Virus record (IMG/VR): IMGVR_UViG_2778261354_000005
Origin: a virus
Taxonomy: Duplodnaviria; Heunggongvirae; Uroviricota; Caudoviricetes
Strand: one strand, 5' to 3'
Length of the DNA: 7,640 nucleotides
Shown here one piece after another: positions 297 through 7,004 of this stretch; position 1 is the first letter of the stretch, and the number at the start of each line of letters is the position of its first letter. A model generated the notes under the pieces. The model did no database searches. It was not told the DNA's origin and saw only the letters and a list, made by a program, of their open reading frames with translations. Position numbers and translations under genes: made by a program.

Positions 297-1112
297 TCAA
301 TGAACGGTATCGAGCAGCTTTAACAGCTCAGGGAATCGGGATTCGAAGAAATGCGGCTGCGTCTCGCGCGGATTTGCGGGACTGGTGATGTTCTTGCCGA
401 ACATGCAGCCTTTCGCTGTCAGCGACCAGAATTTTTTGATGTTGTTAATCGCGGTACGGCTGTATCGTTCGCGTTGTTCAACGATCCCCAGCTTCGCCAT
501 CTGGTGATATGCCTGATTAGCCGTCAGGCGGATACCATACTGCTTCAGCAGTGCACTCAGCGACAGCGTAGGGCGGCTTGAACCATCTGGCGCATCAGCA
601 GGTGCATCAATGGCATAGATCGGCATAAGTTCAGGAAGACCAGCTACCTTTGATAATTTCTGGTATGCACCAAGTTTCGAGGAGTTTGACAGATTTAGAG
701 TCTTTGCTGCTGATTCAAGCAGAATGACCCCGGATTTAATTTTGTCGGATGTGGTTTCTTCTGGTGATGAATTATGAAGCGCATCAAAAGTACGTATCAC
801 TTTTAAGCTGAATGCCGGGCTGATCCACATTGCATATGCATAGACCAGCTCTTTACAGACATACGTCCCACCATTGCGCCCCTGAATGGTGATGACAGGA
901 ATACTACGGGAATCTCCCGTAGTTTCTTCTTCCAATAATTCCACAAGAGCCTTCGTTTCAGGACGACGCATAAACTCGTGAACTTCCAGCGAACGGGAGG
1001 AGCGATTCTCACCAGCGGCAAGAAGAGCAGCTTTCTGAAGGTCGTTAAGACAGTAGTTAGATTCGAAGTACTGGCGCACAGAAACGCCATCAATTACAAG
1101 CAACTGATTCAT
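297..1112 (-). CDS. KilA-N domain protein with a KilA-C/ANT-like C-terminal region (phage antirepressor-like)
   Basis: The ORF track gives 297-1124. The GTG at 1124 lies inside the Shine-Dalgarno GTGGAG, and the ATG at 1112 follows GGAG by 6 nt, so it is the preferred start (271 aa). The N-terminus carries the KilA-N signature (..GRNGGTYVCKELVYAYAMWISPAFSLKVIRTF..). The C-terminal ~90 aa resembles the ANT/KilA-C pattern. Confidence 0.8.
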   Translation of the reverse strand: MNQLLVIDGVSVRQYFESNYCLNDLQKAALLAAGENRSSRSLEVHEFMRRPETKALVELLEEETTGDSRSIPVITIQGRNGGTYVCKELVYAYAMWISPAFSLKVIRTFDALHNSSPEETTSDKIKSGVILLESAAKTLNLSNSSKLGAYQKLSKVAGLPELMPIYAIDAPADAPDGSSRPTLSLSALLKQYGIRLTANQAYHQMAKLGIVEQRERYSRTAINNIKKFWSLTAKGCMFGKNITSPANPRETQPHFFESRFPELLKLLDTVH

Positions 1113-1175
1113 TGGTTTCTCCACAAATTTTTATCCACGAGCGGGACTGCACTCCCTTTTCGTTGATGCAGGATG

Positions 1176-1269
1176 AACTTACTGCGATTTTTAATAGTTA
1201 TCAAGGATACACTGTTCATAAATACAGTATCTTTAACGAGGTAATACCCAAATTTAGGGTGTTGCTCAA
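1176..1269 (-). promoter_or_regulatory. Two candidate sigma70 promoters for the KilA-N gene, flanking the SOS box
   Basis: On the minus strand: TTGAGC (1269-1264)-N17-TATTAC (1246-1241), which places the SOS box about +5 to +25; and TTGATA (1204-1199)-N17-TAAGTT (1181-1176), which places the box 5 nt upstream of the -35. Hexamers were matched by eye only. Confidence 0.45.
1210..1229. promoter_or_regulatory. LexA (SOS) box upstream of the KilA-N/antirepressor-like gene
   Basis: The minus strand reads TACTGTATTTATGAACAGTG, a 16/20 match to the consensus TACTGTATATATATACAGTA, with an intact CTGT-N8-ACAG core. It lies in the 150-bp rusA/KilA-N intergenic region. Confidence 0.75.
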
Positions 1270-1274
1270 TTCCG

Positions 1275-1670
1275 TTACCGAGTTGCTAATTTGCAACTCG
1301 CTTTTTCGTACTTACTGATAGTGATCTCGACCTTCCCCTCCGGGATAACCGGTCCCCACTCCACCAGCATTCTTTTCACCTGTCTGTCGTCTTCCCACAC
1401 ACCCGCGTGGGTCAGGGCGTCAAACAGCGCCTTGTTATAGTTGTCCAGATCGCGGATCCGGTTATCCGGAGGAAACAACACGATCTCCACTGAAGCAGGT
1501 GCCGACGTTGGTTTCGGCAGACGACGTAACTGCTCAACTATTGCTGCACACGCCGCGCTCTGGAATTTTCGCCCCGCCGCGCTTATCAGGCTCTTACCAG
1601 CAAACGCCCCTTTGTTGGGGTGTCGCCAGTACGTGTTCACGCTGGGCGGAAAAGGCAGTATTAGCTTCAT
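1275..1670 (-). CDS. rusA: RusA-family crossover junction endodeoxyribonuclease (Holliday junction resolvase)
   Basis: 131 aa. It has the PPSxNxYWR N-terminal motif and the RDLDNYxKAxxDALT catalytic-Asp motif typical of RusA. Its ATGA start overlaps the upstream stop, and GAGGGG lies 9 nt upstream. Confidence 0.9.
   Translation of the reverse strand: MKLILPFPPSVNTYWRHPNKGAFAGKSLISAAGRKFQSAACAAIVEQLRRLPKPTSAPASVEIVLFPPDNRIRDLDNYNKALFDALTHAGVWEDDRQVKRMLVEWGPVIPEGKVEITISKYEKASCKLATR
1279..1306 (+). terminator. Plus-strand intrinsic-terminator-like hairpin embedded in the 3' end of the minus-strand rusA gene
   Basis: CGAGTTGC-taattt-GCAACTCG is an 8-bp perfect stem with a 6-nt loop, followed by C-TTTTT (1301-1306) on the + strand only. 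The minus-strand side has an A-run before the stem and no U-run after it. Confidence 0.45.
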
Positions 1671-1993
1671 ACTTTCAGGCCCCTCTCATGTAACCAGTGG
1701 GCTGCACGCAGCCTGGCGTTTGCCTCACCGGCAAGCAGGGCGCGGATAATCCCGACCGCCTCGCTGTCGTCGTCCTTCACCGCGGTATGAAGAGTGATAC
1801 CCCGGGCCACGCCACGCTTTATCGTGATGACACCTTTTTTCTCCAGTGCGCGAAGATGCTCCACCGCTGCATTCACCGAACGGTATCCCAGCATGGTTGC
1901 CACCTCCTGATTGGTTGGCGGGAAGCCACGTTCTTTCTGATAAGAAATCAGCATATCCAGCACCTGCTGCTGGCATTGAGTTAATGTCGTCAT
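1667..1993 (-). CDS. LexA N-terminal DNA-binding-domain-only protein (winged HTH; no S24 peptidase domain)
   Basis: 108 aa. Residues ~4-68 align by eye with E. coli LexA residues ~5-69, with about half the positions identical to my recollection, including the recognition-helix region RS-NAA-EHL-AL--KGVI and the following RGI-L. The protein ends about 40 aa later, so it has no Ser/Lys catalytic domain. ATGA overlaps occur at both ends. Confidence 0.85.
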   Translation of the reverse strand: MTTLTQCQQQVLDMLISYQKERGFPPTNQEVATMLGYRSVNAAVEHLRALEKKGVITIKRGVARGITLHTAVKDDDSEAVGIIRALLAGEANARLRAAHWLHERGLKV

Positions 1994-4250: not shown

Positions 4251-5407
4251 TTGCGCCCCCTTACCTCTGAAGGGTTCAGCGACAAATTTATGAGACAGGC
4301 CAGCGCCGAAGCATCATTAATATAGTCATATAAGCTAACAGCCAGCGGAGATTCGGCTTTTGCCAACATAGGATAAAGCTGCTGCAGCCAGACCTGATGA
4401 ATTGATGAAATGTAGGAACAGAGAACGCTGGCGTTATGTGCAACGTCGCTCGGTACAGCGGGCTTTGAAAGCTGTTTCTCCATCTGGTTAAAGGCATTTA
4501 TGTATGCCTCTTTGAACCGGGCAGCACGTTTACCCGTGAAACCCATAGCAAGAAACGCAAAACCGTCTCGTGTGATTTGATAGCAAGGGAGCTTGCGTGT
4601 ACCACCGTTCGGTTGATTTACCGAAATCGATGTCTCCGCAAAATTGCGGGCACAAAACTCTGGGGAACAATCCAGAGTGCGGATCTTTTTCAGCACATCG
4701 TCGTGACGCTTGGAGAAGAAGTTGGCAACAGCCAAAGAAGTGGTAACGGCCTGGCCGTTGTCAATGGTGATTTCAGGTTGAGTGAGGGCTGGGATCGTAG
4801 CCATGATGGCAGCCTCCGTTGACAGTGAAAAACTTCCACCACCGGAAACGCCAATTTCACTGGTGGTGAACTGGACGGGGTTGGCGTAACCGGCGTCAAC
4901 GGAGACCGGCGCACCTTTCGGTGCCCCCGCCCAGCCCACCATAATCTGGATGTGAGCAAATGCGGACGATAAAAAAGACGCTGGCGCGTCATACATCGCC
5001 GTTGACAATTTCAGGACGCCAATCCCGGCACCCGCTTTATAAGGTGCCTGAGCAGTGTAACGTCCCGGAATTGCAGAATCAATATGCTGGTGGTCCTTCA
5101 CACTCAACAAAATCACGCCTGAATTTCCACAAAGGACTAAAGCACTCATGCGGGTAGTCTTTGCGAAGATAGATAACGCGCTGTGTTTCTGGCTCCCAAC
5201 GAATAACATGGACATAAAGCCCTCTTCCGTCACGAAACCAGCGGTTAAGTTCCTGCACAACTCGCCCCCCACAGTCAGGTAAAGTTCTCTGTGGTTACTT
5301 ACAGCCAGGTGATTTGGTAATCTGCATTCATGCCGTAACAACAGGTGTTCAGCGACGCTGACCACCAGCTGTTGCGACAAACGGTTATTTGCCGTTAAAC
5401 TATTCAT
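4247..5407 (-). CDS. 386-codon ORF: an unknown 201-aa N-terminal region fused in frame to a Rha-family phage regulatory protein (C-terminal 185 aa)
   Basis: Residues ~212-330 carry the Phage_pRha pattern (..TTSLAVANFFSKRHDDVLKKIRTL..YQITRDGFAFLAMGFTGKRAARFKEAYINAF..). The ATG at 5407 overlaps the YmfL-like stop (ATGA). There is no stop codon between the N-terminal region and the Rha part. Confidence 0.65.
   Translation of the reverse strand: MNSLTANNRLSQQLVVSVAEHLLLRHECRLPNHLAVSNHRELYLTVGGELCRNLTAGFVTEEGFMSMLFVGSQKHSALSIFAKTTRMSALVLCGNSGVILLSVKDHQHIDSAIPGRYTAQAPYKAGAGIGVLKLSTAMYDAPASFLSSAFAHIQIMVGWAGAPKGAPVSVDAGYANPVQFTTSEIGVSGGGSFSLSTEAAIMATIPALTQPEITIDNGQAVTTSLAVANFFSKRHDDVLKKIRTLDCSPEFCARNFAETSISVNQPNGGTRKLPCYQITRDGFAFLAMGFTGKRAARFKEAYINAFNQMEKQLSKPAVPSDVAHNASVLCSYISSIHQVWLQQLYPMLAKAESPLAVSLYDYINDASALACLINLSLNPSEVRGRK
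4802..4817 (-). promoter_or_regulatory. Internal ribosome-binding site plus ATG at the start of the Rha domain (alternative 185-aa product, 4247-4804)
   Basis: The minus strand reads GGAGG (4817-4813), then ctgccatc, then ATG (4804-4802). This is a consensus SD with 8-nt spacing, exactly where Rha-family proteins normally begin (MATIPALTQPEITI..). Confidence 0.55.
5289..5304. promoter_or_regulatory. Weak SOS-box-like CTGT-N8-ACAG motif inside the 5' part of the 386-codon ORF
   Basis: CTGTGGTTACTTACAG has an intact core, but the spacer is GC-containing and the flanks are non-consensus (CT..CC), so predicted affinity is low. Confidence 0.25.
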
Positions 5408-6311: not shown

Positions 6312-7004
6312 ATGAACATAGGAAACCGAGTCAGACAACTTCGCCAGGCGAAGAACATGAAAATCGCCGATCTCGCTGAAGCAATAGGAGTGGATGCGGC
6401 GAATATCTCACGCCTGGAAACAGGTAAGCAGAAACAATTCACTGAACAAGCCCTGAGTAATATTGCCAGGAGCTTAGGTGTTGATATTGCTGATCTCTTT
6501 ACCTCAGACGTCAAAAGTAATACTGTATTTAAAAACAGTATTAGTGAGGATGTTGCGCAGGTGAAGGATGTATTCCGTATTGAAATGCTGGATGTCAGTG
6601 CCAGTGCGGGAAATGGCCTTATCCAGGGCGGTGATGTCATTGATGTGATTCATGCCATTGAATACAGAACTGATAATGCTGTATCGATGTTTGGCGGACG
6701 GCCAGCCAATCACATTAAAGTTATCAACGTTCGTGGGGACAGTATGTGTCCAACCATTGAGCCAGGAGATCTCATCTTCGTTGATGTCAGTATCAATCAG
6801 TTTGATGGAGATGGTATCTATGTATTTGGTTTTGATGATAAAATTTATGTCAAACGACTGCAAATGATACCTGACAAACTACTGGTGATTTCTGATAACC
6901 AGATTTACCGTGAATGGGGAATTACCAGCGAAAATGAACACCGGTTTATGGTCTTTGGAAAGGTCTTAATCAGCCAGTCACAAACCCTTAAGCGACACAA
7001 TTAA
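6312..7004 (+). CDS. cI-like prophage repressor: XRE HTH plus LexA/S24 autopeptidase domain
   Basis: 230 aa. N-terminal HTH (..IADLAEAIGVDAANISRLETGKQ..). Candidate Ala99-Gly100 cleavage site (SASAGNG). Catalytic Ser144 lies in GDSMCPTI and Lys181 in YVKRL. The Ser-Lys spacing is 37 residues, as in LexA. Confidence 0.9.
   Translation: MNIGNRVRQLRQAKNMKIADLAEAIGVDAANISRLETGKQKQFTEQALSNIARSLGVDIADLFTSDVKSNTVFKNSISEDVAQVKDVFRIEMLDVSASAGNGLIQGGDVIDVIHAIEYRTDNAVSMFGGRPANHIKVINVRGDSMCPTIEPGDLIFVDVSINQFDGDGIYVFGFDDKIYVKRLQMIPDKLLVISDNQIYREWGITSENEHRFMVFGKVLISQSQTLKRHN
6521..6540. promoter_or_regulatory. Near-consensus LexA (SOS) box inside the cI-like coding sequence
   Basis: TACTGTATTTAAAAACAGTA is a 17/20 match to TACTGTATATATATACAGTA, with perfect 8-bp arms AATACTGT/ACAGTATT (6519-6542). 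It encodes N70-I77 in the interdomain linker. Confidence 0.7.

Follow-up and report, generated by a model that had tools for sequence, protein, structure and literature searches.

Organization of the locus

The window analyzed here, a stretch of 7,640 nucleotides from a Caudoviricetes virus (IMG/VR record IMGVR_UViG_2778261354_000005), carries on its minus strand a short LexA-like gene placed between those for a DNA adenine methyltransferase and a Holliday-junction resolvase. Two strong SOS boxes lie elsewhere in the window, one of them inside the coding sequence of the cI repressor. The features considered in this work are:

1210-1229, no strand: strong SOS (LexA) box, a candidate target, in the 150-bp intergenic insert between RusA and KilA-N; 21.8 bits
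1275-1670, minus: RusA Holliday-junction resolvase, the downstream partner; PF05866
1667-1670, minus: ATGA overlap of the LexA-like stop and the RusA start; 'GAAAGTATGAAGCT', direct reading
1667-1993, minus: LexA-like gene, PHROG 362 family; ORF of 108 aa plus stop
1670-1768, minus: two-helix C-terminal tail, codons 76-108, proposed dimerization module; AF2, conservation, dN/dS 0.22
1769-1789, minus: low-confidence linker, codons 69-75; pLDDT below 50 at residues 71-75
1790-1993, minus: LexA-type winged helix-turn-helix (HTH) of three helices and a two-strand wing, codons 1-68; AF2, Foldseek, dN/dS 0.035
1838-1882, minus: recognition helix region RSVNAAVEHLRALEK, codons 38-52; identity to LexA, dN/dS 0.009
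1990-1993, minus: ATGA overlap of the Dam stop and the LexA-like start; 'GGCGGCATGACGAC', direct reading
1990-2643, minus: Dam-family DNA adenine methyltransferase, the upstream partner; PF05869, E 6.8e-45
6521-6540, no strand: strong SOS (LexA) box, a candidate target, inside cI codons 70-76; 25.4 bits

The original prediction had placed the gene in the early operon between Dam and RusA, and this arrangement was confirmed, with an ATGA overlap at either end; the neighbors Dam, RusA, KilA-N and cI (HTH plus S24 domains) were all verified by Pfam. Dam likely begins at the ATG at 2643. A GGAG sequence lies 8 nt 5' of the LexA-like start codon, and the protein is probably made from the early lytic transcript by translational coupling from Dam through to RusA. 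A PADLOC search returned no meaningful defence-system match.

In all contexts examined, from 100% down to 40% identity, RusA lies directly 3' of the LexA-like gene, which it overlaps by 4 bp or follows after a gap of 2 nt, and the upstream neighbor is a DNA methyltransferase (Dam or a C5/D12 fusion) in five of seven distinct contexts. The gene and its accompanying rusA allele are also almost co-extensive in E. coli, where they occupy 2,855 and 2,974 places, respectively. These associations are consistent with a protein that acts not as a transcription factor but together with its neighbors, either binding DNA as an accessory to RusA, and often to the DNA methyltransferase, or coupling their expression; it might for example direct junction resolution or hold it in check, or deal with the damage caused by foreign methylation. 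We consider such a role quite improbable, as 17 loci without the LexA-like gene couple RusA straight to Dam through the same junction (Dam...GGCATGAAGCT...RusA; seven junctions read), while a LexA-type recognition helix as tightly conserved as the one described below points to sequence-specific reading of DNA, and many unrelated genes of the nin region likewise keep a conserved order. Many phages also carry RusA without the LexA-like gene. Because its absence from the 17 loci is ORF-precise, the gene is an accessory cassette and not a core function.

A LexA DNA-binding domain without the cleavage domain

The encoded protein was proposed to retain the winged HTH of LexA and to lack its S24 domain, and profile searches agree on both points. 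Pfam LexA_DNA_bind (PF01726) matches residues 1-65 over the entire 65-position profile (E 2.9e-19; 69 bits against a cut-off of 23.7), whereas Peptidase_S24 (PF00717) has no match in the 108-aa protein, although it does match the cI protein of the same window. E. coli LexA was found by a phmmer search of the PDB (E 6e-16), and the score against TIGR00498, the LexA equivalog, was 70.7 bits, under the cut-off of 110.95. The match to phrog_362 is full-length, with residues 1-108 aligned on profile positions 1-106 (E 4.2e-59). PHROG 362 is annotated as "transcriptional repressor", which is a predicted function only, and no functional study was found in the literature on the E. coli LexA-like family.

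Structure prediction supports the same assignment. The AF2 model has the winged-HTH fold of E. coli LexA (3JSO, 1JHH), and in Foldseek it matched DNA-bound LexA (3JSO) at 1.4 Å over 67 residues with 51% identity. Secondary structure in the DNA-binding part comprises helices at residues 6-22, 28-35 and 40-52, followed by strands at 56-59 and 65-68. Where the LexA-like protein departs from E. coli LexA is in what follows: it has no S24 domain, no equivalent of Ser119/Lys156 and no conserved cleavable Ala-Gly loop, and it carries a different C-terminal module.

The claim that most of the recognition helix is retained also held, with S39, N41, A42, A43, E45, H46 and L47 the same as in E. coli LexA and only P40 and E44 replaced, both by V. 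Outside this run, K52/K53 are basic, like R52/K53 of LexA. Our assignment of base contacts in LexA, which was drawn mostly from secondary citations, includes the contact of N41 with operator bases (PMC5999292) and the roles of R52/K53 (PMC4807011).

The C-terminal tail

The winged HTH leads through a short flexible linker, which is modeled as disordered and is the region varying most in length across the family alignments, into a helical hairpin of about 35 residues. Its two helices are predicted at residues 74-87 and 93-103 with a pLDDT of about 88 (AF2), and homologs keep the hairpin even where identity has fallen to about 40%. The tail gave nothing significant when searched against Pfam and PDB sequences. 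Weaker whole-length fold matches of the model were to the regulators MntR, MarR, Rrf2 and MecI (Foldseek), which dimerize via helices following the winged HTH. In our reading, the tail would make the LexA-like protein a constitutive dimer, standing in for the S24 domain with which LexA carries out both cleavage and dimerization. Formation of a heterodimer with host LexA, one of the roles suggested originally, is unlikely, since LexA dimerizes through precisely the domain that is missing from the phage protein.

The sequence LLAGEA, to which attention had been drawn as a reminder of the LexA cleavage-site region VAAGEP, is indeed present at residues 86-91, but the likeness is weak. This segment is predicted to be helical, with the A88-G89 pair inside the helix and not in an exposed loop (AF2); moreover, G89 is N in Citrobacter-type sequences, and the motif is missing from distant members of the family. 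No exposed loop bearing a conserved Ala-Gly site for cleavage is present in the LexA-like protein.

SOS boxes in the window and around the gene

Exact CTGT-N8-ACAG matches occur three times in the window (1212-1227, 5289-5304 and 6523-6538) against an expectation of 0.10, and three were reached in none of 200 shuffles. When scored with a LexA weight matrix built on E. coli LexA sites, two of the three SOS-type boxes in the original prediction are of LexA quality, at 21.8 bits for 1210-1229 and 25.4 bits for 6521-6540. The remaining one, at 5287-5306, scores 7.2 bits, below the 8.5 bits that is the mean best score of the shuffled window, and was rejected as a LexA site. The box at 1210-1229 accompanies its KilA-N allele in 45 of 45 loci, in one of which it has decayed to 15.2 bits; most loci having the LexA-like gene are without this RusA/KilA-N box. 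The cI box is found in all 49 distinct alleles of the window-type cI. Selection on the cI box itself was considered and rejected: its arms are conserved no more than the gene average, with one of 12 sites variable against 17% overall, and 55% of the 20-nt windows in cI are conserved as well as the box.

Strong SOS boxes number 23 in 27 complete loci where 0.2 would be expected, an enrichment of about 100-fold, and therefore sites on which the LexA-like protein could act are common around the gene. No SOS box of at least 18 bits was present in nine of the 27 complete E. coli loci, and of the five contexts examined for distant homologs, four (L001, L123, L124 and L399) had none of at least 14 bits. 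An apparent "degenerate box" before KilA-N in L123, TGGTGGATAAATGAACAGTG, proved to be a ribosome-binding site with its start codon and not a homologous operator.

The gene and the three boxes had been thought to form one module, and a survey of the co-occurrence of the gene with intragenic cI boxes did not bear this out. The LexA-like gene accompanies the box-bearing methylase in 96% of loci and the box-bearing KilA-N in 93%, figures that were striking at first but lost their force as evidence for a module against a control without boxes. The box-less SfV-type cI is found with the gene in 54 of 61 loci (89%), nearly as often as the box-bearing cI (57 of 60; 95%), so that no specific association is apparent. 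Lytic-side boxes occur in 26 of 54 loci with the gene and in three of seven without it. The LexA-like gene is not a dedicated partner of its phage's own SOS boxes.

Conservation and selection

The LexA-like gene belongs to a conserved lambdoid-phage family; it is present in 2,233 of 5,426 complete E. coli genomes (about 41%), and 326 of 327 copies are intact. Across 161 intact alleles of the E. coli clade, dN/dS is 0.11 overall, 0.035 in the winged HTH, 0.009 in the recognition helix and 0.22 in the tail, and third codon positions account for 61 of the 120 variable sites. These values denote purifying selection, very strong on the recognition helix and clear on the tail. The alignment of the protein to LexA in HMMER runs on weakly into the linker and cleavage-site region, where the AGE tripeptide matches up, as might be expected of a functionless, decaying remnant of a captured lexA. 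There is next to no likelihood in that explanation, which is already refuted by the pattern of selection and by the near-universal intactness of the gene, by the conservation of its length and tail down to about 40% identity, and by the existence of PHROG 362 as a full-length family. A recent truncation without conservation, which the original prediction had allowed for, is likewise ruled out by homologs of 104-118 aa that keep the tail over the same range.

Comparison with known systems

Contrary to the initial view that truncated phage LexA proteins have no characterized function, one such protein has been studied. The gp6 protein of GIL01, a tectivirus of Bacillus thuringiensis, binds a palindrome overlapping the -35 element of the late promoter P3 and activates P3 (Fornelos et al. 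2018; PMC6182141). Like the protein described here, gp6 is a phage LexA DNA-binding domain without S24, encoded in an early operon and made after derepression, and it acts at a phage promoter that is also controlled by host LexA. The two differ in that gp6 is of Gram-positive LexA origin, recognizes a palindrome unlike the host LexA box and serves as an activator, whereas the LexA-like protein is 51% identical to the E. coli LexA domain and keeps its recognition residues; gp6 is also a bare winged HTH of 66 aa, while the LexA-like protein adds a conserved 35-aa tail. BLASTP between the two gave no alignment at E values up to 100 and, as judged from the sequences, the LexA-like gene is of independent origin from gp6.

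An activator of the gp6 kind, binding beside a -35 element and recruiting RNA polymerase to a delayed phage promoter such as one before KilA-N, is an improbable explanation of the present gene, even with the precedent of gp6, itself a truncated LexA homologue of an early operon, which switches on its late promoter when bound to a site centered at -43.5. One hand-read candidate for the KilA-N promoter, TTGATA-17-TAAGTT, would suit it, with the box upstream of -35 and centered near -50; the other, TTGAGC-17-TATTAC, puts the box just downstream of -10, in a repressing position, and a promoter scan of the RusA/KilA-N gap found no sigma-70-like site. Further points against activation are the absence of this box from most gene-bearing loci, the lack of detectable similarity to gp6 with its tail-less domain, and the presence of Q antiterminators, which handle late control in phages carrying the LexA-like gene.

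GIL01 gp7, one of several phage proteins that modulate the SOS response, is also a small early phage protein, and the LexA-like protein would likewise alter the output of the LexA regulon, but gp7 has no DNA-binding domain and binds LexA itself. The tail has no similarity to gp7. The nearest functional analogues of the activity proposed below are the lexA(Ind-) mutants, such as G85D and S119A, in which the DNA-binding activity of LexA cannot be switched off by RecA*, together with the N-terminal cleavage fragment of LexA; the LexA structures 1JHF and 1JHH appeared in the PDB and Foldseek searches. The mutants are laboratory products and the fragment is a short-lived, weak binder, whereas the LexA-like gene is natural, selected and equipped with a C-terminal module of its own.

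Variation of the recognition helix among clades

The recognition helix differs within the family. No member retains the E44 of LexA. The specificity residue E45 has changed in five of the 14 rows that alignment A3 holds for the family (P0086, P0122, P0133, P0136 and P0165) and also in L123, L124 and L403, the named changes being E45A in L123, E45I in P0136 and E45L in P0133. The Citrobacter clade, at 66-67% identity, shows four consecutive helix changes, from NAAVEH to NTIAGH or NTITGH. A species-level survey yielded only four loci, namely two from Shigella, one from Citrobacter and a 326-bp fragment, which did not suffice for statistics.

These differences, which arise while the remaining protein is conserved, may indicate a phage regulator that is specific to its clade, has moved away from the SOS box as its operator, and represses or activates either a certain host gene or a phage promoter (in the nin/Q region, in replication or at an accessory gene). 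We regard this as rather unlikely, although several observations fit it: the replacement of E44 throughout the family, the four distant loci and the one third of complete E. coli loci in which no box reached the respective threshold, and the precedent of gp6 for a diverged operator. On the other hand, the E. coli clade keeps all checkable base-reading residues of LexA under extreme constraint, S-x-N-A-A-x-E-H is kept in nine of the 14 A3 rows, and no alternative conserved palindrome was identified.

A proposed RecA-insensitive binder of SOS operators

The best explanation, in our view, is that the LexA-like protein is insensitive to RecA, dimerizes by its tail, is produced in lytic growth and binds operators of the SOS type, a reading that we hold tentatively, with a little less than even confidence. 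We infer SOS-box binding, repression and a biological benefit to the phage. The E. coli-clade protein is predicted to bind CTGT-type SOS operators because its recognition helix keeps the residues with which LexA reads bases, and such binding is plausible on these grounds. Having neither a Ser/Lys dyad nor a cleavable loop, the protein could not be inactivated by RecA*, and LexA-controlled promoters would for this reason stay occupied once host LexA has been destroyed. The promoters concerned may include those of host SOS genes and of SOS-controlled accessory genes belonging to the same and other prophages, with the KilA-N gene a possible target in the present phage. On infection of an undamaged cell, a LexA mimic would add little, because host LexA is intact.

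Further considerations temper this reading, among them the lack of a specific co-occurrence with phage SOS boxes and the box-less surroundings of most distant homologs. A helix that varies by clade suggests clade-specific operators better than a single invariant host target, and gp6, with 44% identity to the host LexA domain, nevertheless has a different operator and acts as an activator (PMC6182141). It is possible, but doubtful, that a RecA-proof mini-LexA of this kind re-closes the SOS regulon after induction of a lambdoid prophage, shutting host SOS functions and blocking the SOS-dependent induction of competitor prophages with LexA-controlled antirepressors.

If the protein does bind SOS operators and is uncleavable, many E. 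coli strains, Shiga-toxin lysogens included, carry a phage-borne override of the host DNA-damage response that works from inside an induced cell; this would affect how long SOS-driven mutagenesis, filamentation and the expression of toxins or colicins persist after antibiotics, and which prophage prevails upon induction when several reside in one cell. A RecA-proof mini-LexA would be expected to influence how toxin is released, how antibiotics induce mutations and how prophages compete, because it resides in prophages of ~41% of sequenced E. coli, Stx phages among them. [quoted passage not shown] Should a diverged site be bound instead, the family would provide a set of naturally varied recognition helices, all carried on a LexA scaffold.

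The gene has appeared in earlier work in other connections. Phage 1720a-02, the subject of "The bully phage", carries it, and the interference reported there was ascribed to Cro; mEp and Stx-phage genomics papers merely catalogue the gene or apply the term "LexA-like" to the S24 domains of cI. A precise deletion of the LexA-like gene is already present in nature.

Domain content and predicted structure

The window is taken up by a lambdoid prophage's immunity-to-nin region, whose lytic operon runs on the minus strand in the order Cro-like HTH, CII/CP76-like, Ash/Rha, replication genes, Dam, LexA-like, RusA, a 150-bp gap and KilA-N.

Genes and SOS-type sequences in the window
297-1124, minus strand: KilA-N gene
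1210-1229: candidate box, 21.8 bits, RusA/KilA-N gap
1667-1993, minus strand: LexA-like ORF, 108 aa
5287-5306: match, 7.2 bits, Ash/Rha ORF
6312-7004, plus strand: cI, HTH and Peptidase_S24
6521-6540: candidate box, 25.4 bits, cI codons 70-76

All elements that the original prediction described for the LexA-like ORF are present; its location on the minus strand was not mentioned there. Pfam LexA_DNA_bind covers its full profile in the 108-aa product (E 2.9e-19), the S24 domain is absent in the Pfam search, and a PDB search finds E. coli LexA (E 6e-16), while the score against the NCBIfam LexA equivalog stays below its cut-off (70.7 vs 110.95 bits). Residues S39, N41, A42, A43, E45, H46 and L47 are identical to those of E. 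coli LexA, and P40 and E44 are both replaced by V. The gene has an ATGA overlap at each junction and GGAG 8 nt 5' of its start codon.

In an AF2 model built on 16 family members (mean pLDDT 79.7), the N-terminal part forms three helices and a two-strand wing, residues 71-75 are disordered, and the tail that replaces the S24 domain forms helices 74-87 and 93-103 (pLDDT about 88). Foldseek superposes the first 67 residues on DNA-bound LexA 3JSO (1.4 A, 51% identity) and gives weaker whole-length matches to MntR, MarR, Rrf2 and MecI-type regulators, which dimerise via helices C-terminal to the winged HTH. The tail alone has no match among Pfam families or PDB sequences. Since the LexA-like protein lacks the dimerisation domain, it is unlikely to heterodimerise with host LexA, as once proposed.

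We tentatively favour a model in which the protein, made during lytic growth and dimerised through its tail, would bind SOS-type operators insensitively to RecA, so that LexA-controlled promoters would stay occupied once host LexA is gone. Domain content and selection are observed directly; we infer the dimerisation, the target and the regulatory sign.

Conservation and prevalence

E. coli, Shigella, Citrobacter, Salmonella and Hafnia all have close relatives measuring 104-108 aa, and about 10 further 50%-identity clusters matching across the tail come from a profile search against 1.8 billion representatives (37-48% identity to the window protein, 104-165 aa, the extra length being N-terminal extensions). 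The full-length family in PHROGs is phrog_362, labelled 'transcriptional repressor' by prediction only. Among the loci fetched here 326/327 copies are intact, and the 161 intact alleles give a dN/dS of 0.11 for the whole protein, 0.035 for the winged HTH, 0.009 for the recognition helix and 0.22 for the tail. Of 5,426 complete E. coli genomes, 2,233 carry the gene, with 2,855 places in total and at most four per genome. Some 50 deposited phages have it as well, among them SfV (orf42), SfII, SfIV, mEp460, cdtI, 1720a-02 and many Stx2 phages. It is a functional and widespread gene. Recent truncation, which had been raised as an alternative, is ruled out by the conserved family, the retention of the tail and purifying selection.

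A gene-precise cassette between Dam and RusA

RusA lies directly 3' of the LexA-like gene in all contexts examined, from 100% to 40% identity, followed by KilA-N or DUF968 and then Q, and in E. coli the gene is nearly co-extensive with this rusA allele (2,855 vs 2,974 places). In 5/7 distinct contexts a DNA methyltransferase lies next to it on the upstream side: Dam in locus L124 as in the window, and C5/D12-type enzymes in loci L123, L399 and L398. These neighbours would suit a partner of RusA or of the methylase, but 17 loci join Dam straight to RusA without the LexA-like gene, and we consider this role very unlikely. Junctions read in seven of the gene-free loci (L088, L090, L126, L131, L140, L164, L352) have '...GGGAGATGGTGGCATGAAGCT...' or a close variant, the Dam stop meeting the RusA start via the same ATGA that flanks the LexA-like gene. 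The ORF is therefore a cassette whose gene-precise limits are the two ATGA overlaps, and at least some prophages can do without it.

Recognition helix and specificity

In a family alignment of 14 rows (A3), S39 is invariant, N41 is present in all rows but one, A42 and A43 are mostly retained, and E45 is found in 9/14, the remaining rows having D, G, I, L or T; outside this alignment the E45 position is A in L123, D in L124 and G in the Citrobacter prophage L403. LexA E44 is replaced in all family members. N41 is an operator contact in LexA (PMC5999292), and R52/K53 are important for LexA binding (PMC4807011). Because the LexA base-reading residues that were checked are kept in it, the E. coli clade, including the window protein, looks like an SOS-box reader, and this argues against an otherwise conceivable clade-specific regulator with a diverged operator. 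That alternative draws on the recognition-helix changes across the family (NTITGH or NTIAGH in Citrobacter; E45 lost in 5/14 rows), which by sequence are of the kind seen where operators diverge, but we regard it as unlikely.

The Citrobacter clade (L403 4870-5190; family protein P0086) is 66-67% identical overall and carries four consecutive recognition-helix substitutions (NAAVEH to NTITGH/NTIAGH), compared with a dN/dS of 0.009 for the helix within the E. coli clade. This looks like a specificity switch.

Relation to GIL01 gp6

The original prediction knew of no characterised truncated phage LexA, which is contradicted by gp6 of the Bacillus thuringiensis tectivirus GIL01 (PMC6182141). Gp6 is an activator of the late promoter P3, where its binding site GaCACAnnTGTGaC overlaps the -35; host LexA together with the small early protein gp7 represses P3 (PMC6182141). 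It was the only such homologue, and no functional study of the present family was found, in literature searches that left most subscription journals outside their coverage. In genomics papers on Stx phages the gene figures only as a 'LexA family transcriptional regulator' (pham 237, pfam01726), mixed with cI-type repressors, and a preprint on its carrier phage 1720a-02 ascribes prophage interference to Cro.

Gp6 has 66 aa and no tail, whereas the window protein has 108 aa with one, and BLASTP finds no similarity between them, which indicates independent captures. A gp6-like activator is quite unlikely here. The window protein adds to what is known a second phage LexA-domain protein, derived independently of gp6 and carrying a novel C-terminal module.

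SOS boxes

The window contains three exact CTGT-N8-ACAG matches vs 0.10 expected. Scored with an approximate weight matrix from 24 E. coli LexA sites (training range 13.3-26.9 bits), those at 1210-1229 and 6521-6540 fall within the range of the training sites, and that at 5287-5306 lies below the mean best score of the shuffled window (7.2 vs 8.5 bits). Across 80 IMG/VR loci with the LexA-like gene, three types of site repeatedly hold strong boxes: the interior of this cI family, a 150-bp insert 5' of one KilA-N allele, and an N6/N4 DNA methylase located between Q and holin, at its codons 3-9. The 27 complete 20-kb loci hold 23 boxes of at least 18 bits vs 0.2 expected, and nine of these loci have none.

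Presence of the LexA-like gene in loci fetched via box-bearing genes and controls
KilA-N allele with box: 42/45
KilA-N allele (about 70% identity) without box: 27/34
cI with box: 57/60
Methylase with box: 64/67
SfV-type cI without box (neutral control): 54/61

The locus sets are mosaics rather than clones (65-74 clusters per 80 loci). The gene accompanies box-free cI at almost the frequency seen for box-bearing cI, so the high co-occurrence reflects one phage group with a near-universal gene, not a functional link. In the control set, lytic-side boxes occur in 26/54 loci with the gene vs 3/7 without. The distant homologs fit this picture: boxes are absent in the loci of mEp390, L123, L124 and L399; L398 has a 26.8-bit box yet a divergent helix in its LexA-like protein, and L403 has a canonical box in cI, while its helix reads NTITGH. 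The most economical interpretation is that host LexA is what the boxes serve, and that they exist independently of the LexA-like gene. The proposed dedicated module of gene and three boxes is not borne out, given the box-free control (54/61 vs 57/60) and the third match of 7.2 bits, and the suggested survey of gene and cI-box co-occurrence yields a frequency close to that of the control.

Individual boxes and other features

The cI box 6521-6540, TACTGTATTTAAAAACAGTA, falls within the linker that joins HTH to S24. All 49 distinct alleles of this cI have it (identity 90.6-100%), their spacer codon being F, C or Y, and it is found also in Shigella (L401) and Citrobacter (L403) prophages. Conservation of its arms is not measurably above the rest of the cI gene. 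Host LexA at this candidate box could possibly act as a roadblock or at an internal or antisense promoter.

The KilA-N allele of the window comes with a 150-bp intergenic insert (1125-1274) holding box 1210-1229, whereas the roughly 70%-identical allele (SfV orf44 type) adjoins RusA without gap or box. The KilA-N gene of the window thus has the look of a self-contained, SOS-inducible unit. Two promoter candidates lie near its box, TTGAGC-17-TATTAC upstream and TTGATA-17-TAAGTT downstream.

The methylase box, TACTGTAAAAATAAACAGTG (22.6 bits; SfV locus L002, 10907-10926), is frequent in these phages and present in 67/67 methylase loci examined; in L398 (NCBI AP025685.1) it lies at 8739-8758, 24 nt 5' of where the homologous methylase is annotated to start. 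At L398 5476-5580 a terminator-like hairpin, located after a methylase, precedes the 26.8-bit box, about 440 bp 5' of a block of small ORF, LexA-like (40% identity to the window protein), RusA, DUF968 and Q, an arrangement suggesting that this Q operon may be directly under host LexA control.

An unannotated 30-aa ORF on the minus strand (2641-2735), MSLLNEVQKFIEAHPGCTSGDIADAFYVGA, lies between the replication gene and Dam and shares TAATGA with the latter, where its stop and the Dam ATG overlap. Its sequence is similar to the N-terminus of family member P0227, in which the first two helices appear swapped. An ISEc13 element (IS4 family, 97-98% identity to its annotated copies) occupies positions 1-201 with its end part, terminating at 201 in the IS50-like inverted repeat TTTGTGTATAAGAGACAG, and E. 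coli prophage homology begins at 202; the prophage is thus interrupted about 95 bp 3' of KilA-N, ahead of Q, and is possibly defective.
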